Assembly: GCA_026397015.1 (NCBI GenBank) | Contig: JAPLVR010000005.1 | Span: forward strand, 32,001-96,000 | Length of the DNA stretch: 64,000 nucleotides | DNA from: Candidatus Iainarchaeum sp. | GTDB taxonomy: Archaea; Iainarchaeota; Iainarchaeia; Iainarchaeales; JAAZKV01 | Reading direction: 5' to 3' | Shown: positions 8,412 through 24,280 of the stretch, in pieces | How the letters are laid out: every line of letters starts with the position of its first letter | Numbering within the stretch: the stretch's first letter is position 1 | Notes under the pieces: generated by a model | What the model was told of the DNA's origin: nothing | Databases searched by the model: none | Seen by the model: only the letters and a program-made list of their open reading frames with translations | Program-made: the position numbers and the translations under genes

Positions 8412-8453
8412 GGCGGCGTTTTTTCGCCAGCCTTTTTTCGAAAAAAGGCTGAT
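8412..8453 (+). repeat. Dispersed palindromic element, copy A
   Basis: ggcggcgttttttcgcCAGCCTTTTTTCGAAAAAAGGCTGat; related copies at 24184-24210 and 49536-49573 (reverse). Confidence 0.8.
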
Positions 8454-8537
8454 GCACGGGTTGGGGAGCGGTCAAACCCGCCAGGCTTAGGACCTGGTCG
8501 CTTAGTGCGTTCGGCGGTTCGAGTCCGCCCCCGTGCA
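8454..8537 (+). tRNA. tRNA-Leu(TAG), intronless, CCA not encoded
   Basis: Acceptor GCACGGG/CCCGTGC-A, anticodon arm CCAGG-CT-TAG-GA-CCTGG, long variable arm, T-loop TTCGAGT. Confidence 0.95.
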
Positions 8538-8769
8538 TTTTTTTTCACCGGCATTGACCTCTGAAAAAACTTATATCTCCTTCGATTTTTTTGATTTCTT
8601 TGGATGCCGGTTATTGTTTTTGAAAAGAAGAAGCCTCCTGATGGTGCCCAAAACCCGAGTATTCTGGAATAACGATACAGGTATGCTAAAAAATTTTTTT
8701 CTTTTAGGCGGGTTTATTAACTTTTTTCAGCCTGTTATTTGGGTTTAATTTTTTGTAGGTGAAATCTGA

Positions 8770-11439
8770 ATGGTTACAAATGAGTATGGTGGGAAGAATG
8801 CAAATGCAAAATTCGTTTACATGTTTGAGGAAGGAAAAAAGGAAATGAAAATGCTCCTCGGAGGAAAGGGGGCGAATTTGGCGGAGATGACAAACACTGG
8901 CCTTCCCGTGCCCTACGGTTTCACCATTACCACTGATGTCTGCAAATATTATTATGCCAATAAAAAAACTTACCCTAAAGGTTTGGATGAACAGATTTTG
9001 GTTGCAATTAAAAAAATGGAATCCAAAACCGGGAAAAAATTCGGTGATAAAAAGAATCCGCTGCTTGTTTCTGTGCGCTCTGGTGCTCCCGCTTCGATGC
9101 CCGGAATGATGGACACGATCCTGAATCTTGGAATCAACGATGTTGTTGTAGGAACAATTTCAAAAAAATCGAACAATGAGAGATTTGCTTGGGACGCTTA
9201 CAGAAGATTTATCACAATGTTTGGAAACGTTGTAATGGGAATAAAACATTCAAAGTTTGAAGAAATAATGGATGAGATTAAGCGCAAATACAAGAAGAAA
9301 CTTGATACTGAGTTAAGCGCGGAAATGTTGAAGGAAATGGTTGCGGAGCAAAAGAAACTTTACAAAAAAGAAACAAAAGAAGAATTTCCAACCGAGCCCT
9401 TGAAACAACTTGAAAGATCGATGGGTGCTGTTTTCGAATCGTGGAATACAGAAAGAGCCGTCATCTACAGACGCCTAAATAATGTGCCGAACGATTGGGG
9501 CACCGCAGTTAACGTCCAAGAAATGGTTTTCGGAAATATGGGAAATGATTCAGGAACCGGCGTTGCTTTTACCAGAAACCCTTCAAACGGAGAAAACAAA
9601 TTTTACGGCGAATTCCTGATGAATGCGCAGGGCGAAGACGTTGTAGCCGGAATAAGAACGCCGAAACCGATTCACGAGCTCGGCAAAATTTTGCCAAAGG
9701 CTTACAAGCAATTGGTTGAAATAAGGGGCAGGCTTGAAAAACATTACAAGGACATGCAGGACTTTGAATTTACGATTGAAAATCAGAAACTTTTCATGCT
9801 GCAGACAAGGAACGGAAAGAGAACTGCGCACGCCGCGGTGAAAGTCGCAGTAGATATGGAAAAAGAAAAATTAATTTCAAAAGAAGAAGCTGTTCTAAGA
9901 GTTGATCCTTCCTCTTTAGACCAATTACTTCACAGGCAGTTTGACCCGAAGCACAAATATGCTGCACTAACAGAAGGGCTTCCTGCTTCTCCGGGCGCTG
10001 CTGTTGGAAAAGTTGTTTTCACCGCAGAGCATGCAAAAATGCTTGCGGAGGAAGGGGAAAAAGTTATTTTGGTTCGCATTGAAACCTCGCCAGAAGATAT
10101 TGAGGGAATGCATTCGGCGCAAGGCATTTTAACCGCGCGCGGAGGAATGACTTCTCACGCCGCAGTTGTGGCGCGAGGAATGGGAAAGTGCTGCGTCGCA
10201 GGCGCGGACGAAATTGTGGTTGATGAAAAGGCGAAGCATTTTACCTGCAAAGAAACAGTTGTAAAAGAACTTGATGTTATTTCGCTGAATGGCTCCACAG
10301 GAGAAGTGATTGTGGGAGAATTGCCCACTGTCGAGCCGACCCTTTCTGGCGATTTCGGAACGTTAATGGAATGGGCCGACGGTTTTAGGAAATTGAGGAT
10401 AAGGACGAATGCCGACACGCCGCACGATGCAAAGGTTGCGCGCGGCTTTGGCGCGGAGGGAATCGGCTTGGCGCGAACAGAGCACATGTTTTTTGAGGCG
10501 AGCAGAATAAAGGCCGTGAGAAAAATGATTCTCTCAAAAACTTTGGAGGAAAGAAAAGCGGCGCTTGCGGAAATTGAGCCTTTCCAGCGCGAGGATTTTG
10601 AGGGAATTTTCAAGGAGATGGATGGCCTGCCCGTAATAATAAGAATGCTTGACCCGCCCCTGCACGAATTTTTGCCGAAGGAAGAAAGGGAAATAAACGA
10701 GCTTGCGGATGAGATGGGCATTGAGGCGAAAAAAATCAGGGAAACGATTGAGGCGCTTCATGAATTCAACCCGATGCTCGGTTTCAGGGGTTGCAGGCTT
10801 GCGATTGTTTATCCAGAAATTATGGAGATGCAGGTGCGCGCAATATTTTCCGCCGCCCTTAATGTTCAAAAGAAAGGAATAAAGCCGCTGCCTGAAATCG
10901 AAGTTCCTTTGGCAGGCGCAGTGAAAGAATATGCTCCGCTCCGCGATTTGGTGAAAAAAGTCTCAAAAGAAATCGGCGCGGAAGGAAAAGTGCATTACAA
11001 AGTTGGAACGATGATTGAGGTGCCGCGTGCCGCCCTTACTGCAGAAGAATTTGCGAAGGAAGCGGAGTTCATGTCTTTTGGGACAAATGACTTAACTCAA
11101 ATGACCTGCGGCTTTTCAAGAGACGACGCCGGAAAATTTTTGGGGCCTTATGTCGAGAAAGGAATTTATTTGAGGGATCCTTTCCAAACGATTGACCAGG
11201 AAGGCGTCGGCATGCTGATGAAAATGTGCGTCGAGAAGGCGCGCTCAATAAATCCGAAAATCAATATCGGGATTTGCGGCGAGCACGGTGGCGACCCGGC
11301 CTCGGTCGAATTTTGCCACAGAATCGGAATGGACAACGTCAGCTGTTCCCCTTACAGGGTCCCGATTGCCAGGCTTGCCGCGGCGCAGGCTGTGATAAGG
11401 GAAAAAATTTTGGGAAAAAAGAACGTAAAGAAAAAGTAG
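8770..11439 (+). CDS. ppdK: Pyruvate, phosphate dikinase
   Basis: GGKGANLAEM, LLVSVRSGA, GGMTSHAAVVARG (phospho-His), SFGTNDLTQ. Confidence 0.98.
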   Translation: MVTNEYGGKNANAKFVYMFEEGKKEMKMLLGGKGANLAEMTNTGLPVPYGFTITTDVCKYYYANKKTYPKGLDEQILVAIKKMESKTGKKFGDKKNPLLVSVRSGAPASMPGMMDTILNLGINDVVVGTISKKSNNERFAWDAYRRFITMFGNVVMGIKHSKFEEIMDEIKRKYKKKLDTELSAEMLKEMVAEQKKLYKKETKEEFPTEPLKQLERSMGAVFESWNTERAVIYRRLNNVPNDWGTAVNVQEMVFGNMGNDSGTGVAFTRNPSNGENKFYGEFLMNAQGEDVVAGIRTPKPIHELGKILPKAYKQLVEIRGRLEKHYKDMQDFEFTIENQKLFMLQTRNGKRTAHAAVKVAVDMEKEKLISKEEAVLRVDPSSLDQLLHRQFDPKHKYAALTEGLPASPGAAVGKVVFTAEHAKMLAEEGEKVILVRIETSPEDIEGMHSAQGILTARGGMTSHAAVVARGMGKCCVAGADEIVVDEKAKHFTCKETVVKELDVISLNGSTGEVIVGELPTVEPTLSGDFGTLMEWADGFRKLRIRTNADTPHDAKVARGFGAEGIGLARTEHMFFEASRIKAVRKMILSKTLEERKAALAEIEPFQREDFEGIFKEMDGLPVIIRMLDPPLHEFLPKEEREINELADEMGIEAKKIRETIEALHEFNPMLGFRGCRLAIVYPEIMEMQVRAIFSAALNVQKKGIKPLPEIEVPLAGAVKEYAPLRDLVKKVSKEIGAEGKVHYKVGTMIEVPRAALTAEEFAKEAEFMSFGTNDLTQMTCGFSRDDAGKFLGPYVEKGIYLRDPFQTIDQEGVGMLMKMCVEKARSINPKINIGICGEHGGDPASVEFCHRIGMDNVSCSPYRVPIARLAAAQAVIREKILGKKNVKKK

Positions 11440-11467
11440 TTATACTTCTTTGTCTGCAAATATCTGT

Positions 11468-12067
11468 ATGAATCCGAAGCGGAGGCCTATTTTTGGAAAG
11501 CCGCGGAAGGCGAAAACTTCCATTAATTTGGTCGGCAAAATTATTCCAATTGTCAGGCGCAGGAAGTATCGTTTGCTTGAAAACTCTTTTTCAATGCGGG
11601 ATGCGCTAATAGTCAGGGATGCGATGAAGTACCTTCTCAAAATTGGGGCGAGGGTTCCAACCATCAGTGATATAGGCCTTTTTAAGAATCAGCCAAAAAC
11701 TATTCATGAGGTTGTTAAAATGAATACTTTGCCGAAGGTAATGTCCTATGATTTAATTAGAAGTGTGGCGCCGCAGGCCAGCAAAAAGTGTTTTAGGGCA
11801 GTGGATTTGTTTGCCCATTTTGGGGTGCATTCGCATTTGGGTTTGTTCAGGGAAATGGGTTATCCCGAATTCACGCTTCAATATTTGGAGGGCGAGGGGT
11901 ATCTTGAACACCGGCGGAAGGATTTTGTGATTCCTGCGGAGGAAAGGCTTCTCAAGGACGCGCTGGCAAGCGCCGAAAAAAAATACGGGAGAAAAAAAAT
12001 TGGCGAGTTCAAGAAGCGGTTTGAAATAGTCGAGTTTTACGACCAAATTTCCACCGGTCGTTCCTAA
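11468..12067 (+). CDS. Basic hypothetical protein, paralog 1 of a tandem pair
   Basis: Shares MKY..K.G...PTI..IGLFK..P, MGYPEFTLQ and EKKYG.K blocks with the next ORF; ATG 11468 chosen as start. Confidence 0.7.
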   Translation: MNPKRRPIFGKPRKAKTSINLVGKIIPIVRRRKYRLLENSFSMRDALIVRDAMKYLLKIGARVPTISDIGLFKNQPKTIHEVVKMNTLPKVMSYDLIRSVAPQASKKCFRAVDLFAHFGVHSHLGLFREMGYPEFTLQYLEGEGYLEHRRKDFVIPAEERLLKDALASAEKKYGRKKIGEFKKRFEIVEFYDQISTGRS

Positions 12068-12080
12068 AGAGGTTTTTGTT

Positions 12081-12716
12081 ATGAAAAAAATTTTTAAAGT
12101 CGGGGCGAAAAAAATTTCCATAAAGGTGCGCCAAACAAAATCGAACGCGGCTTCAATAAGAAACGCGGCTTCGAGGAGAATCGCGGCTTTAAGGAGAAAC
12201 AAAATGGTCATTGTTCCGGTTTTGGGGCGCAAAAATTACGGATTGTCTTCAGAAACAGTTGATTTGTTGAAGCGCACAATGAAATATTCAATTAAACTTG
12301 GAATGAAGATGCCTACAATAAAAAATATCGGGCTTTTCAAAGACAATCCGATTACGCATTTTAATATCGCTTCGACTGGAAAGTTTCCGAAACTGATTAA
12401 TCTTCCTGTTTTGTACGAGTTTGCGGAAAAAATGCCTGCGCGTTCTTCAAAAATGGTTCGCATGATTGGCAACATGGAGGATGAACTTCTTAGAGGCCTA
12501 ACCAAAATGGGTTATCCTGAATTTACTTTGCAGAATCTGTTTGACAGGGGCTATTTTGAAAAAAGAAAATCCGGATGGGCGTCTGTTTCGGAAGAGGCTA
12601 TGCTGAAGCAGTCATTGATTGATTTGGAAAAGAAATATGGGAAAAAAGAAGTTGTCAAGCTCAAAAAGAGGCTTGGCATCGGAAAAATATTTGAAGAAAT
12701 TCTGCGAAGCCACTAA
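12081..12716 (+). CDS. Basic hypothetical protein, paralog 2 of a tandem pair
   Basis: Same shared blocks as paralog 1; GAGG RBS. Confidence 0.75.
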   Translation: MKKIFKVGAKKISIKVRQTKSNAASIRNAASRRIAALRRNKMVIVPVLGRKNYGLSSETVDLLKRTMKYSIKLGMKMPTIKNIGLFKDNPITHFNIASTGKFPKLINLPVLYEFAEKMPARSSKMVRMIGNMEDELLRGLTKMGYPEFTLQNLFDRGYFEKRKSGWASVSEEAMLKQSLIDLEKKYGKKEVVKLKKRLGIGKIFEEILRSH

Positions 12717-12727
12717 AAAAAAGTTTC

Positions 12728-12748
12728 GCCGGACCGGAAAGGCCCGGC
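12728..12748. terminator. GC-rich hairpin between convergent genes
   Basis: gccggaccggaaaggcccggc. Confidence 0.4.
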
Positions 12749-12774
12749 TTCAAATAATTTAAATGGAAGAAATT

Positions 12775-12933
12775 TTACTTTCCCGCCAATTTGTTTTTCT
12801 TTACGTATGCCCAGATTCTCTTTGTCATTTCGCTTGGTGCGATTTTTGTTGAGCCGAATACGCTTTCAACGCTGTCTTCACAGCCCTTGAAACATATGGA
12901 GTATCCTCCGAATGCTGCTTTTTTTGCTACCAT
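12775..12933 (-). CDS. 52-aa SWIB/MDM2-like small protein (absent from ORF track)
   Basis: Own translation MVAKKAAFGGYSICFKGCEDSVESVFGSTKIAPSEMTKRIWAYVKKNKLAGK; GGGGGGA RBS; 'EMTKRIWAYVKKNKL' matches the SWIB helix. Confidence 0.7.
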   Translation of the reverse strand: MVAKKAAFGGYSICFKGCEDSVESVFGSTKIAPSEMTKRIWAYVKKNKLAGK

Positions 12934-13050
12934 TTAATCTTCCCCCCTTTGAAAAGTTTTTTTCTAAATTTAGTAAATTAGCTTGTTTATTTAAACTTAA
13001 TCGTTTGGCCGATGCAAACATTTAAACTATATTCTGCAAAACAGTCTTTC

Positions 13051-13106
13051 GGGCAGTGATGAGGTAAATTCCAATAGCCCTTATGGGGTTATAAAATCTG
13101 ATTCTT
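13051..13106 (+). ncRNA. Box C/D-like sRNA 1
   Basis: Box C GTGATGA 13056-13062, box D CTGA 13098-13101, internal hairpin, TTTAAA at 13021; 5' part similar to sRNAs 2 and 3. Confidence 0.55.
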
Positions 13107-13120
13107 CCGTGAAGCAGGGG

Positions 13121-13160
13121 TAAGTAAATTAAGCGAATTTGTTTTTTGGCCGGTCGGAGT
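13121..13160 (+). repeat. 40-bp direct repeat, left copy (34/40 identical to 14500-14539)
   Basis: taagtaaattaagcgaatttgttttttggccggtcggagt. Confidence 0.75.
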
Positions 13161-13278
13161 ATTTTTTAAAAATATTTGTGGGCGCGCCAATTTTCTTTTT
13201 CCACCTCGCATTTATAAAAGATTTCTGCAGGGTCGCGAAATAAATAGCAATAAATACCAGTTATTTATTTTATGCCGT

Positions 13279-13377
13279 GTGAAGCGTCTTCTTATTGTAT
13301 TGTTTTTGCTTGCCTTTCTTGGCACGGTTTTTTCCGCCAATGAGTCTACGGCGGGATTAGGATTTTTAGAAAAATAA
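13279..13377 (+). pseudogene. Signal-peptide-only remnant of a secreted protein gene
   Basis: GTG start, MKRLLIVLFLLAFLGTVFSANESTAGLGFLEK*; frame continues for 13 codons past the TAA. Confidence 0.35.
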
Positions 13378-13462
13378 ATTTTTTCCGAAAAGTGCAATGG
13401 ACTGTTCATTATGGGCTGAACAAGTCTGCCTGATTTCCGGATTCGTGTATAAAAAGTTGGTT

Positions 13463-14290
13463 TTATTTCTTTTTTTTGATAAGTAACGACAGCTGTTTTT
13501 CTATTTTTCTCAGCTTTGTGGAAAGCTGTCTTTCTCTCATTGCGTCTTCATCGAGATAATTTTTCATCTGTTCCGGGCTGTTCAATTTGTCCATGGCTTT
13601 GCTCATGTTGCCCACTATTATTCCGAGGAAAAGGTTCATGATTACCATTGTTGCAATTATTATAAATGAAATAAAATACAATGGGCCGCCTACAGGGTAG
13701 GCCGCATTTGCTGGCACCATTATTGTGTTCCAATTTTCAAGTGTAAGTATCTGAAACATTGTGAACCCCCCTTTCCAAATCGAACCAAAGTGTTCAGGAT
13801 CAGCTGTGTTGAATAATGAAACCCCTATTACGGTGTAAATGTAAATGATTACAAAAAGAAGCAGCGCAACGAATACCACTGAAGAGATGCTTTCAATAAG
13901 CCCCTTAACCACCGGTCTGATATTCGGGAATGCTCTGAAAAGTCTGAATGTCCTTATCACCCTCACCAATCGGAGAACATAAATCGCCTTGTCTTTGAGC
14001 GGGATAAAGCAGGCCAAAACGATTGCAAAATCAAAAAGATTCCAGGAGTCTTTAAAAAAATTAAATGGTTTTTCTTCGGCAAAAATTCTAGTGATTATTT
14101 CAATACAAAAAATGGTAAGAATCGCCCCCTCAAGCAAATTAACGGTTGGGTACCATGGAGAATCTAATGGCATGTTAAGACTGAACCCGACAAGTATTGC
14201 GGAAAAAATGATTACGGAAAGAACTGTGTAATTGAATGCCTTGGAATCAACTATTGGTTTTAACTTTGCCGACAAAGACTTCCTGTTCAT
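13463..14290 (-). CDS. Voltage-gated cation channel (BacNav/NaChBac-like 6TM ion transporter)
   Basis: S3 'WNLFDF', S4 'RLVRVIRTFRLFR', pore 'FQILTLENW', S6 'MNLFLGIIV', C-terminal coiled coil. Confidence 0.92.
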   Translation of the reverse strand: MNRKSLSAKLKPIVDSKAFNYTVLSVIIFSAILVGFSLNMPLDSPWYPTVNLLEGAILTIFCIEIITRIFAEEKPFNFFKDSWNLFDFAIVLACFIPLKDKAIYVLRLVRVIRTFRLFRAFPNIRPVVKGLIESISSVVFVALLLFVIIYIYTVIGVSLFNTADPEHFGSIWKGGFTMFQILTLENWNTIMVPANAAYPVGGPLYFISFIIIATMVIMNLFLGIIVGNMSKAMDKLNSPEQMKNYLDEDAMRERQLSTKLRKIEKQLSLLIKKKK

Positions 14291-14499
14291 GCCGTGTTAA
14301 TTTTGTTTGAAGTTGGTATTAAACCTTTTGGTAGGACAGGATGTTTGCCGTAAACCTTTGGGCATTTCATAGTAAATGCATCTAAACTTGTGTTTTTTCG
14401 TGTTTTGTGGGTTTATCCATTTTTAATAAATTATGTCTGCATAATATATTCAAAAGCCTTTTGGGGTACATTTTTTTTAGTTGTCTTGTTAAGCAGAAT

Positions 14500-14539
14500 T
14501 AAGCAAATTAAACAAATTTGTTTTACGGCCGGTCGGGGT
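14500..14539 (+). repeat. 40-bp direct repeat, right copy
   Basis: taagcaaattaaacaaatttgttttacggccggtcggggt. Confidence 0.75.
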
Positions 14540-14582
14540 GTTTAACAAAGTCCTTTTTATTGTTTTTCCCTCAGTATTATTT

Positions 14583-14654
14583 TGTGTTTTCGTGATGAAG
14601 TAAATCCCTGATGAGCGTAAGCTGTGATTATTTAATCCAACTCTGAAAAACACA
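14583..14654 (+). ncRNA. Box C/D guide sRNA 2
   Basis: Terminal stem TGTGTTTT/AAAACACA, C GTGATGA 14592-98, guide AGTAAATCCCTG, D'-like ATGA, GC-GTAA-GC, C'-like GTGATTA, guide TTTAATCCAACT, D CTGA 14643-46. Confidence 0.8.
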
Positions 14655-14692
14655 TAAGGCTTAAAGAATTAGAGTTTTATAAAAACCTACAA

Positions 14693-14763
14693 GGGTTTTC
14701 GGATTTAATGAAGTAAATCCCTGCGGGGCGGAGGCTGTGACGATTTAATCCAACCCTGAGCCC
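14693..14763 (+). ncRNA. Box C/D guide sRNA 3 (paralog of sRNA 2)
   Basis: C-like TTAATGA, identical guide AGTAAATCCCTG, C'-like GTGACGA, guide TTTAATCCAACC, D CTGA 14756-59; TTTTATAAA ~25 nt upstream. Confidence 0.72.
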
Positions 14764-14812
14764 ATAATTTTTGTTTCAGGCAGTTCATCCGATTAGGGAG
14801 ATTATTTTCGAA

Positions 14813-14920
14813 TTAGCGTTTATTTTCTTCTTGGAGCTTTCGGGCTTTGCTGGCTGAAGGCTTTTCTAAAAAAGTCTTTGGTGTTTTCCCACCAGTAGCG
14901 GAGCCTTCGCTTCTTGCCAT
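14813..14920 (-). CDS. Possible 35-aa basic peptide
   Basis: MARSEGSATGGKTPKTFLEKPSASKARKLQEENKR*, with GTGGGT upstream; no family recognised. Confidence 0.25.
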   Translation of the reverse strand: MARSEGSATGGKTPKTFLEKPSASKARKLQEENKR

Positions 14921-15000
14921 TTGGACCCACGGTGTAATATTTGCGTCTTCTAAACATTCAGATATTGCTGCCTTCGAAATTTAAAAAGCTTTCGCAGGCC

Positions 15001-15753
15001 TCACAAAAACAGTTTTTTAAAACTTATTTCCTGTGCCCTTCCAATTTCCTCGATTGGGATTTTTTTCAATTCCGCGACCTTTGAGACGATGTCCAATAAT
15101 TTGTGCGGGAATGCCTGTTCATTGTTGAAGCGGAAGGGCGAATCCGTTTCAAAGAGCAGGTTTTCAAGCGGAAATCGCGTAATGTCCTTTTGGATTTGGT
15201 TGTTTTCAAGGATTGCGAGTCCGACCGAAACGAAGTAGCCGTTCCCGGCGGCGCGTTTCATGAGCCTTTCCGAATCTACAAACGAATGCAGAACTGCCTT
15301 CTCCGCCTTTTCCGCTTCAAGCGTTTCAAGGACTTGTTTTTGTGCGAATCTTGAATGGATGATGAGCGGTTTTCCGGTTTCGTTTGAAAGTTCGATGAAT
15401 TTCCTAAAAATTTCGATTTGTTTTTTTTGCTGCTCCGCTTTTTTTGCGAATTTGAAATCCAGCCCGACTTCCCCTACTGCAATGGAAGTTTCCTCTTTTA
15501 TTTTCGACTTGAAAAAAGAAAAAGCCTTTTTCAGTTCTTCATCGTTTAGTTCCATCGCTTCCAGCGGGTACAATCCGATAGCCGCTTTTATTTCTGGAAA
15601 CATTTTTGCGAGCGCAAGATTTCTGGCATTTGAGTCGAAGCTCGTGGAGCAGGAAATTATTTGCGAAATATTGTTTTGTTCCGCTTTTTGGAGCGCCTCC
15701 TTCAGCTCCTTTTCGGAGAGCATATCAAGGTGGCAATGGACATCGTAGAACAT
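15001..15753 (-). CDS. tatD: TatD-family nuclease
   Basis: DVHCHLD, AVGEVGLDF, IIHSR, LFETDSP. Confidence 0.93.
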   Translation of the reverse strand: MFYDVHCHLDMLSEKELKEALQKAEQNNISQIISCSTSFDSNARNLALAKMFPEIKAAIGLYPLEAMELNDEELKKAFSFFKSKIKEETSIAVGEVGLDFKFAKKAEQQKKQIEIFRKFIELSNETGKPLIIHSRFAQKQVLETLEAEKAEKAVLHSFVDSERLMKRAAGNGYFVSVGLAILENNQIQKDITRFPLENLLFETDSPFRFNNEQAFPHKLLDIVSKVAELKKIPIEEIGRAQEISFKKLFL

Positions 15754-15840
15754 TTCATCTTCCTCGGCCGATTTTAGGCATATTCGTCAATTAACTTGCA
15801 AAGCAAAACAATAAAAAACTCTTTCAATTCAACCTTCTTT

Positions 15841-24070: not shown

Positions 24071-24210
24071 AAAACGTTTTTGCCGAAGGCAATCTCTGTC
24101 GCGCAAAGCGAAGGCAGGGCTCTTAACCAGCCTCTAAAAAGGTTTTGCGTAGCAAAATCCATCGAGCATCAGCGAAGATGGATTTTTTCGCCAGCCTTTC
24201 TAAAAGGCTG
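24071..24210. repeat. Cluster of mini-hairpins ending in palindromic element copy B
   Basis: TTGCC-GAA-GGCAA, CGC-AAA-GCG, TTTTGC-GTA-GCAAAA, AAAATCCATC...GATGGATTTT, CAGCCTTT-CTA-AAAGGCTG. Confidence 0.65.
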
Positions 24211-24280
24211 GGGTTATAGTGTAGCGGTATCACGGTTGGCTCCAGACCAACAAACCGGGGTTCGAGTCCCCGTAACCCCA
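24210..24280 (+). tRNA. tRNA-Trp(CCA), intronless
   Basis: Acceptor GGGGTTA/TAACCCC-A, anticodon arm GTTGG-CT-CCA-GA-CCAAC, T-arm CGGGG-TTCGAGT-CCCCG. Confidence 0.93.

Follow-up and report, generated by a model that had tools for sequence, protein, structure and literature searches.

Methylation equivalent to Um2552 of Escherichia coli 23S rRNA is made by RlmE/FtsJ in bacteria and by snR52/Spb1 in yeast. Passages of Dennis et al. 2015 (PMC4644070) predict this nucleotide, the first of the A loop, as a box C/D target in five archaeal species, while passages of PMC7994747 describe A-loop modification at U2552 and/or G2553 as always present and cite a growth defect on losing Um2552. Here we describe a box C/D small RNA (sRNA) locus of Candidatus Iainarchaeum sp. 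(GenBank assembly GCA_026397015.1, contig JAPLVR010000005.1), which lies at 13051-14763 of the 64,000-nt stretch of DNA that was analysed (the window, in whose numbering all coordinates are given; positions in the large subunit rRNA (LSU) follow the organism's own 23S numbering unless E. coli is stated). A preliminary description of the locus had listed three units, here called units 1 to 3, as a triad of paralogous box C/D-like RNAs. Judged on its sequence, the locus is probably best explained by one functional guide gene, unit 2, and by a resident copy of the same gene, of which units 1 and 3 are the two halves, split by an insertion that carries unit 2.

Unit 2 shares with the archaeal A-loop C/D sRNAs its boxes, its 12-nt guides, an N+5 position that falls on the first A-loop nucleotide, two nearby targets and the protein genes; it differs from them in that the target base is a G, not a U, with a compensating C in the guide. 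Relative to RlmE/FtsJ and snR52/Spb1 the nucleotide and the chemistry are the same, but RlmE is a stand-alone enzyme, whereas the predicted agent here is a guide RNA. Integrative elements are known to enter tRNA and tmRNA genes and to leave a displaced fragment, and elements that resemble miniature inverted-repeat transposable elements have inverted repeats. The putative insertion is like these systems in its entry into a small-RNA gene, the displaced far-end fragment, the inverted repeats, the short direct repeat and the reused site. In contrast to them, its target is a C/D sRNA gene and no integrase or transposase was found in or beside it (tyrosine recombinases were searched for); the repeat tip resembles the target sequence after the junction, and one version carries a spare whole gene and does not rebuild the target. 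Passages of Ghaly et al. 2022 (PMC9668308) report integron cassette arrays in Archaea, with which arrays in relatives of this organism are compared below.

The genome that holds the locus (G000) is archaeal, 0.9 Mb in 6 contigs, with 42-43% G+C and 85% completeness; its small size and its protein matches suggest a DPANN-type archaeon. The comparison covered 38 genomes of the family, the organism's own among them, and 151 genomes sampled from the order; genomes are referred to by G numbers. Homologues of unit 2 were gathered from relatives by BLAST and pattern searches, 23 sequences were aligned, and a covariance model (R1) was built from this alignment of C/D homologues. A second covariance model was built from unit 1 and two look-alikes met by chance in G005 and G007.

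Judged by sequence, unit 2 belongs to the canonical dual-guide box C/D sRNAs of archaea and is predicted to be an ordinary rRNA methylation guide. Its spacers, from C to D' and from C' to D, are both 12 nt. The homologues follow the layout RTGATGA, AGTAAATCCCTN, NNGA, a kink-loop (K-loop) or short capped stem, C' (mostly GTGANNA), TTTAATCCAACT and CTGA, and come in two flavours: one, the unit 2 type, has a 7-bp terminal stem, GTGTTTT/AAAACAC (GTACTTT/AAAGTAC elsewhere), and the other a short GCC/GGC stem. The motif g(g/c)ctttttattg is kept 5' of the long-stem copies in relatives. Over the 23 aligned sequences the terminal and internal stems were 79.6% paired, with 9 of 10 pairs changed on both sides, and none of 500 shuffles reached the score; in the terminal stem alone, all seven pairs showed double changes. 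The guide cores were invariant in 23/23 and the TGA core of C' was likewise invariant throughout, while D' read NNGA in 22 of the 23, the sole exception being unit 3.

A covariance model across relatives had been proposed in the preliminary description. R1 found the gene in 35 of 38 family genomes, with its boxes and guides conserved, and in 101 of 151 order genomes at a threshold of E <= 0.05, where some of the weakest matches may represent other C/D RNAs; in all 14 order-level loci that were opened, the top match had the same architecture and related guides. The partner genes are present in the organism's own genome: those for fibrillarin (239 bits) and Nop5 (Nop domain, 137 bits) are adjacent, and a member of the L7Ae family scored 88.5 bits. 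Rfam searches over the region gave no family at gathering score and only weak matches of the small nucleolar RNA (snoRNA) type (for unit 2, snoR12 with 20.9 bits and E about 1), which is expected, snoRNA models being guide-specific. An intact C/D gene of G005 (L090:1494-1626) has about 60 extra nt between D' and C', and at 133 nt in total is unusually large for an archaeal C/D sRNA.

The predicted targets had at first not been matched cleanly to rRNA. A search of the organism's own rRNAs gave two 23S sites, both in the peptidyl-transferase region and 29 nt from each other. LSU 2577-2588 pairs with the D' guide (10 Watson-Crick pairs, one G-U pair and one mismatch next to D'), and LSU 2606-2617 with the D guide (10 Watson-Crick pairs, two G-U pairs and no mismatches). 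On alignment with E. coli 23S rRNA, the N+5 nucleotide of the D' duplex corresponds to E. coli 2552, the first A-loop nucleotide (own LSU 2581), and that of the D duplex to G2581 (own LSU 2610). When 3000 shuffled guide pairs were searched in the same manner, single matches as good arose in 162 and 227 cases and both together in nine; in none did the two fall within 60 nt of each other.

Conservation of the target stretches was complete within the family, in 13/13 LSU fragments recovered from the 38 genomes for the D' target and in 14/14 for the D target. For the order, 23S rRNA was recovered in seven of the ten genomes tried, and guide and target were seen to change in step. Six order genomes with U at 2552 (GGTGTTAAC) have guides GTTAACACC with A at the fifth position; G042, with G at 2552 (GGGGTTAAC), has the guide GTTAACCCC with C at N+5; and the organism's own family, with the target GGGGTTTAC and again G at 2552, has the guide GTAAATCCC with the compensating C. 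The pair predicted to be methylated switches from U:A to G:C across families. At the D site, three genomes with an A-to-G change at target position 10 have a T-to-C change in the guide.

Both the pairing and its covariation were observed directly in the sequences. Since near-perfect, covarying 23S targets exist, the guides are not orphans, and the earlier proposal that they form an orphan family, with a target other than rRNA or a role as chaperones, is not supported; the preliminary description had itself held that a good rRNA target would make these units ordinary methylation guides, and two such targets were found. Together with L7Ae, Nop5 and fibrillarin, unit 2 should direct 2'-O-methylation at both 23S sites, its transcription, its assembly into a ribonucleoprotein and the methylation itself being what we infer. 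In yeast, methylation falls on two positions close by, which correspond to E. coli 2577 and 2579. For a second target at E. coli G2581, no report was found in the passages of the literature consulted on A-loop methylation (PMC4644070, PMC7994747).

The A loop of the family 23S rRNA (G000:C6, LSU 2576-2590) reads G-GGUUU-A instead of the usual U-G-U-U-C/A. G replaces the conserved U2552 in 13/13 family LSUs and in G042, and six other families of the order keep U.

Home-made C/D scans of the organism's own genome returned units 1, 2 and 3 and three weak candidates, two with E > 5 under model R1 and one from a box-and-stem scan at C6:60374; only unit 2 was canonical. Tentatively, unit 2 may be the sole canonical C/D sRNA of the genome. 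A Pfam search of the same genome for FtsJ gave borderline matches only (best 25.8 bits, cut-off 24.1), which we read as generic methyltransferase folds, and it would appear that the 85%-complete assembly holds no clear RlmE.

The resemblance among the three units exceeds chance by far. They begin GTGATGA-GGTAAATTCC (13056, unit 1), GTGATGA-AGTAAATCCC (14592, unit 2) and TTAATGA-AGTAAATCCC (14705, unit 3), each has a CTGA (13098-13101 in unit 1; for the others see Table 1), and TATA-like A/T-rich boxes lie about 25 nt 5' of them; all of these elements were found where the preliminary description had placed them. In the output of a repeat finder, the 17-nt box and stub formed a family of three copies (D5; 100/88/76%), and units 2 and 3 were paired over 52 nt with 85% identity (D2). 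As had been noted, units 2 and 3 have both 12-nt guides in common, the sole change being at the last base of the D guide, and the C and D' boxes of unit 3 are degenerate (TTAATGA and CGGG). Model R1 gave E = 1e-18 for unit 2, 1.5e-14 for unit 3 and 0.2 for unit 1.

Their identity as box C/D RNAs was upheld for unit 2, by its boxes, spacers, covarying stem and protein partners; units 1 and 3 lack several of these features. Unit 1 matches only in its C box and a stub of 8-10 nt; with 35 nt from C box to CTGA it is too short for two guides, and no C' box was seen in it. The plain hairpin described for it, CCC-TTAT-GGG, is present, but both hairpin and CTGA belong to an inverted-repeat arm, and the unit-1-like element of G005 has no CTGA at that position. 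Unit 3 retains an intact D box, C' box and pair of guides, but it has changed two bases that the tandem G-A pairs of the kink-turn (K-turn) need, one in the C box (G3 to A) and one in D' (A4 to G); it could form a terminal stem of only 2-3 bp. A pairing of the unit 1 stub with LSU 624-633 (nine Watson-Crick pairs and one G-U) was considered as a further guide and rejected, there being no D' box after the stub, which is the tip of the repeat arm.

To call the units a triad of paralogues is misleading, as units 1 and 3 are most likely the remnants of a disrupted second copy, to judge from comparison with relatives. The same-genus genome G001 has one intact gene, whose 5' end, CGGGC.GTGATGAGGTAAAT.CC, matches unit 1 and whose remainder matches unit 3. 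Unit 3 is identical to it at 51 of 61 positions, and it is the nearest relative of unit 3. The complementary stem halves are split between GGGC in unit 1 and GCCC in unit 3, and among the aligned sequences they occur together only in G001. About 26 nt separate the ATTTAAACTA box from GGGC at 13051, a spacing also seen in the intact genes of relatives. On the far side, unit 3 is followed by a TatD gene (15001-15753, minus strand), in synteny with the resident gene of G018 and G029.

Copies lacking the C box, placed just 3' of a long-stem copy, were found in 4 of the 38 family genomes (the organism's own, G029, G010 and G009), which belong to three genera; a fifth genome with two model matches, G005, has a unit-1-like stub instead. 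None of the four copies retains the C-box G (TTAATGA, TTTATGA, TTAATAA and TTTATGA). When these were compared over a span that begins near the TGAAG junction and takes in the 3' flank, the nearest intact gene came from the same genus each time (own copy with G001, 51/61; G029 with G018, 56/56; G009 with G023, 53/55; G010 with G031, 48/57), and none was nearest to another C-box-less copy. On this pattern the splits would be recent or independent, and would fall at the same nucleotide. The conserved guides and degenerate boxes of unit 3 had been taken as a sign of selection on pairing. This argument is weak: by hand count unit 3 differs from G001 at 2 of 24 guide positions versus 4 of 20 positions between D' and C', a gap that is not significant, and the few guide changes are explained equally well by recent disruption.

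The two arms of the putative insertion were aligned with gaps, 13065-13106 against the reverse complement of 14664-14707, with a score of 40.5; shuffled sequences gave a mean of 15.3 and a maximum of 35.5, and 0 of 2000 reached the observed value. The inverted repeats are about 43 nt long and are flanked by a 6-nt direct repeat, ATGAGG/ATGAAG. The left arm holds the tip TAAATTCC (the "guide stub" of unit 1), the quasi-palindrome GCCCTTATGGGG (its "hairpin"), an outward TATA-like TTATAAAAT and the CTGA (its "D box"); the homologous module in relatives reads CTTATAGGGATTTATAA. At its tip (GGATTTA, 14701-14707) the right arm is the complement of TAAATCC, with which the guide starts. A common stretch of about 45 nt (TTTTATAAATCCCTATAAGGGTTCAAGG...) precedes all four C-box-less copies and ends complementary to the start of the D' guide, and thus a 7-8-bp inverted repeat flanks ATGAAG in them. 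The right arm of the window matches that of G009 over 56 nt with 9 mismatches, and in relatives the arm of a stub agrees with the arm of a C-box-less copy at 32 of 34 positions. These repeats, like the intact sister-genome gene, were observed directly. Since the inverted arms, the direct repeat, the G001 gene, the split stem, the own-genus nearest genes and the TatD synteny all point the same way, units 1 and 3 are best read as halves of one gene.

Table 1. Features of the split sRNA locus and of the putative insertion (window coordinates)
Feature	Position	Strand	Basis or remark
Unit 1 TATA-like box ATTTAAACTA	13020..13029	+	Read as the putative promoter of the disrupted resident gene
Probable 5' half of disrupted resident gene: GGGC, A, C box GTGATGA (13056-13062), GG	13051..13064	+	Matches G001 5' end
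Left direct-repeat copy ATGAGG	13059-13064	+	
Putative insertion, 1,643 bp	13065-14707		Split point between C box and D' guide; unit 2 inside
Left inverted-repeat arm (rest of unit 1)	13065..13106	+	Gapped local alignment with right arm
Element E1, diverged copy of conserved non-coding element, core GGCCGGTCGG	13109..13164	+	80% identity to 14488-14543 (D1)
65-aa open reading frame in insertion	13212..13409	-	No family match; may not be a gene
Cargo gene, 275-aa ion-transport channel protein	13463..14290	-	Pfam Ion_trans, E = 6.5e-41
Element E2, conserved non-coding element of about 105 nt just 5' of unit 2 promoter	14440..14545	+	Relatives
Unit 2 TATA-like box TTTTTATTG	14554..14562	+	About 25 nt before 5' stem; putative promoter
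Unit 2, intact dual-guide box C/D sRNA gene	14584..14653	+	Boxes, stem covariation, model R1, rRNA targets
Unit 2 5' stem GTGTTTT	14584-14590	+	
Unit 2 C box GTGATGA	14592-14598	+	
Unit 2 D' guide AGTAAATCCCTG	14599-14610	+	
Unit 2 D' box ATGA	14611-14614	+	
Unit 2 capped stem AGC-GTAA-GCT	14614-14623	+	
Unit 2 C' box GTGATTA	14624-14630	+	
Unit 2 D guide TTTAATCCAACT	14631-14642	+	
Unit 2 D box CTGA	14643-14646	+	
Unit 2 3' stem AAAACAC	14647-14653	+	
Right inverted-repeat arm	14664..14707	+	Holds TTTTATAAAAA (14675-14685), outward TATA-like box facing unit 3
Probable 3' part of disrupted resident gene (unit 3 minus false C box)	14708..14763	+	G001 match, alignment
Right direct-repeat copy ATGAAG, probable remnant of C-box 3' half	14708-14713	+	
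Unit 3 D' guide	14712-14723	+	
Unit 3 D' box CGGG	14724-14727	+	
Unit 3 C' box GTGACGA	14737-14743	+	
Unit 3 D guide TTTAATCCAACC	14744-14755	+	
Unit 3 D box	14756-14759	+	
Unit 3 stem half GCCC	14760-14763	+	

In the course of events that we infer for the insertion, its direction and its mechanism, a segment of 1,643 bp would have entered the resident sRNA gene between C box and D' guide, and would have brought with it the ion-channel gene, two copies of element E and unit 2, ten nt inside the right arm. Unit 2 could then stand in for the broken resident gene. Unit 3 would keep its guides since the break is recent, and its decay would have begun at D' (CGGG). The apparent guide of unit 1 would be the left-arm tip, its hairpin the palindromic core of the arm, and its D box a chance CTGA in the arm (CTAA in the right arm); the degenerate C box of unit 3 would be the right-arm tip joined to the leftover ATGA of the old C box. 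The segment could have entered by transposition, duplicating 5-6 bp, or by site-specific recombination, with TGAAG as the core between inverted half-sites.

Several observations weigh against this account and should be set beside it. Five genomes have long-stem copies that stand alone, and the 190 nt 3' of these show neither a repeat arm nor a remnant of a resident gene, for which reason the arrival of unit 2 with the insertion is a conditional part of the account. The inverted repeat of the window is only about 75% matched and needs gaps, and was missed by a gapless repeat finder. The left end of the insertion is visible in the organism's own genome only, as in G029, G010 and G009 the contig stops before it is reached. 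The neighbourhood of the G001 gene is not syntenic (of 8 proteins that flank the locus in the window, 0 were found within 1.5 kb of the G001 gene), and this gene is an "empty site" by sequence only. Inside the insertion neither a transposase nor an integrase was found by cargo family searches, which covered tyrosine recombinases and not other transposase families. Genes for tyrosine recombinases (PF00589) are present in this genome and in five relatives that bear arrays, but on separate contigs or, where this could be judged, no closer than 27 kb to the arrays. When contigs of four runs were compared with 12300-15800, no joint across the insertion was seen, only fragments of relatives, a result that is uninformative on an empty site or an excised form. 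No RNA runs carrying this stretch were listed in a run search. Lastly, the D' duplex has a G-U pair adjoining the target pair, in addition to its terminal mismatch.

It might be argued that unit 3 still works as a guide RNA, with the TATA-like box of the right arm as its promoter, assembling in spite of its weak boxes and perhaps with a shifted AUGAAGU as its C box, and that it would add to or tune the methylation of the same sites. The box lies about 26 nt 5' of 14706, both guides are intact, the C-box-less copy of G029 is identical to the gene of its sister genome over 56/56 positions, and the arrangement is kept in 4/38 genomes of three genera. We nevertheless consider it unlikely. The canonical C-box G is gone from 4/4 copies and the terminal stem is reduced to 2-3 bp, while the CGGG of the window's own copy is the sole departure from the D' pattern among 23 sequences. 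With an intact copy only 113 nt 5', selection on unit 3 should be relaxed, and in a predicted fold the repeat tip can sequester the guide start in a 7-bp hairpin.

The 5' half of the putative split gene has counterparts in relatives. The unit-1-like model gave strong matches in 10 of the 38 family genomes, with four or more in the richest, in the order TATA-like box, about 25 nt, GCC.GTGATGAAG, TAAAT.CC, T.GAACCCTTATAGGGATTTATAA, 30-60 nt, and the start of an unrelated small gene. In seven genomes such stubs are found on the strand of the intact sRNA gene, 0.6-6.5 kb 5' of it, and in G004 they alternate with units of one or two genes to form an array. The cargo in G004 and G007 includes genes for NYN-domain, SRPBCC-like, NUDIX and PIN-domain proteins, two alpha/beta hydrolases and a HicA/HicB pair. 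A 17-nt module occurs in eight copies on the 4.4-kb G004 contig; across the family there are 0-13 copies per genome, with none in 20/38 at <=2 mismatches, and those that were placed are all on contigs with the sRNA gene or stub arrays. The composite of stub and module was met in 18 metagenome loci, two of which have an intact sRNA gene 0.5-1.2 kb 3' on the same strand. On the G004 array contig (L221, G004:C3:1-4447), genes of the NYN, alpha/beta hydrolase (two), SRPBCC-like, NUDIX and HicA/HicB types are split by a palindromic module of about 85 nt.

Arrays such as that of G004 are like integron arrays in having one or two small genes, toxin-antitoxin pairs included, between imperfect palindromes of about 85 nt, and no recombinase inside the cassettes. 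They differ in that no adjacent IntI was found (no search was aimed at IntI), each cassette has its own promoter, TATA-like in kind, and an sRNA gene stands at the end of the array in place of attI. Rfam, applied to the array separator, gave only a chance hairpin match. It is quite possible, if short of probable, that the junction of C box and guide, GTGA|TGAAG|TAAATCCC, is in a lineage of archaea with small genomes a recurrent site-specific landing pad for small inverted-repeat cassettes with their own promoters, where successive insertions push displaced stubs 5' and build integron-like arrays of accessory genes, among them toxin-antitoxin pairs, hydrolases and channels. On such a view, one cassette type would break the resident gene yet bring a complete spare copy.

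A reading that dispenses with mobile elements would derive the stubs from local tandem and inverted duplications of the sRNA promoter and 5' end, as promoter-associated repeats that drive downstream genes. The TATA-like module lies by eye about 30 nt before an ATG in several copies, which suits leaderless mRNAs, and one copy of the module, in G025, has no stub. No recombinase gene was found in or next to the arrays, and the repeat module had 0 matches in a viral contig collection. This reading is in our view improbable, however: the TGAAG junction and the repeat arm recur in three genera, the gene closest to each C-box-less copy is an intact one from the same genus, which would need repeated events at one nucleotide, inverted arms with a short direct repeat are a signature of insertion, and the cargo consists of unrelated accessory genes (HicAB, PIN, NUDIX, hydrolases).

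The expanded orphan family of the preliminary description, with three independently functional paralogous C/D-like RNAs and a non-rRNA target or a chaperone role, has in its favour the box and stub common to the three units, the TATA-like box 5' of each, and unit-1-like elements kept in 10/38 family genomes; passages of PMC7994747 also propose that archaeal dual guides with nearby targets aid rRNA folding. It is very improbable all the same, being largely refuted by the near-perfect covarying rRNA targets. Unit 1, moreover, is marginal under R1 and too short, with no C' box seen and its CTGA in the repeat arm, and unit 3 is without the C-box G and D' A that the K-turn needs. Hardly credible is a two-piece C/D RNA on the model of the split tRNA genes of Nanoarchaeum, with unit 1 and unit 3 transcripts annealing through the arms of about 43 nt and GGGC/GCCC: the arms are complementary, the stem halves lie on different pieces and unit 1 has its own TATA-like box, but the junctions are direct repeats with no bulge-helix-bulge motif seen by eye, joining would leave an extra ATGARG between C box and guide, the D' of unit 3 is decayed, and unit-1-like stubs of relatives adjoin intact genes that need no partner.

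Element E, of which the putative insertion has two copies, deserves a short account of its own. It occurs twice in the window (core AAATTTGTT..GGCCGGTCGGGGT), with 80% identity between the copies, and holds the palindrome AAACAAATTTGTTT; the GGCCGGTCGG core in the context of the element was found nowhere else in the organism's genome. Stretches 78-80% identical to E2 occur in G029, G012 and G036, the one in G012 on a contig other than that of the C/D gene. E2 had no Rfam match, and folds of the element on both strands showed at most one compensatory pair and no supported structure. A coding reading of E1 and E2 was rejected by eye, the frame of E1 being closed and the indels between the copies not multiples of three. 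The element may encode a small RNA or serve as a binding site for a protein.

Other features of the neighbourhood were recorded in passing. ARAGORN calls an 86-nt tRNA-Leu (anticodon TAG) at 8453-8538, and the Rfam tRNA model at gathering score reported only 24210-24280. An open reading frame of 889 aa (8770-11439) is by eye a putative pyruvate phosphate dikinase; its best relatives are mostly bacterial, with about 60% identity, which suggests inter-domain gene transfer, and its best archaeal match is in a Candidatus Iainarchaeum metagenome-assembled genome, with 75% over part of the protein. The adjacent reading frames at 11450-12067 (205 aa) and 12081-12716 (211 aa) look like tandem paralogues with the common motifs MGYPEFTLQ and KKYG.K; a Pfam search of the second only gave no match.

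With regard to annotation, these findings imply that apparently insertion-derived stubs and C-box-less copies can pass for new RNA families in sequence-only scans. What is of remaining interest at the locus is the co-change of U2552G with its guide and the apparent repeated insertion into an sRNA gene. If the landing-pad reading is true, a box C/D sRNA gene would play the attachment-site role that is held elsewhere by tRNA genes. It would apparently be the first C/D sRNA gene used in this way, and a full-text literature search found no report of a C/D sRNA gene as an attachment site in archaea. If unit 2 is indeed the sole canonical guide and RlmE is indeed missing, this small genome may, tentatively, keep its fibrillarin-Nop5-L7Ae machinery chiefly for A-loop methylation. 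The site is among the most conserved ribose methylation sites of the ribosome, and the change of U2552 to G in this family, with the guide changed in step, argues that it is the ribose methylation, and not the base, that is conserved.

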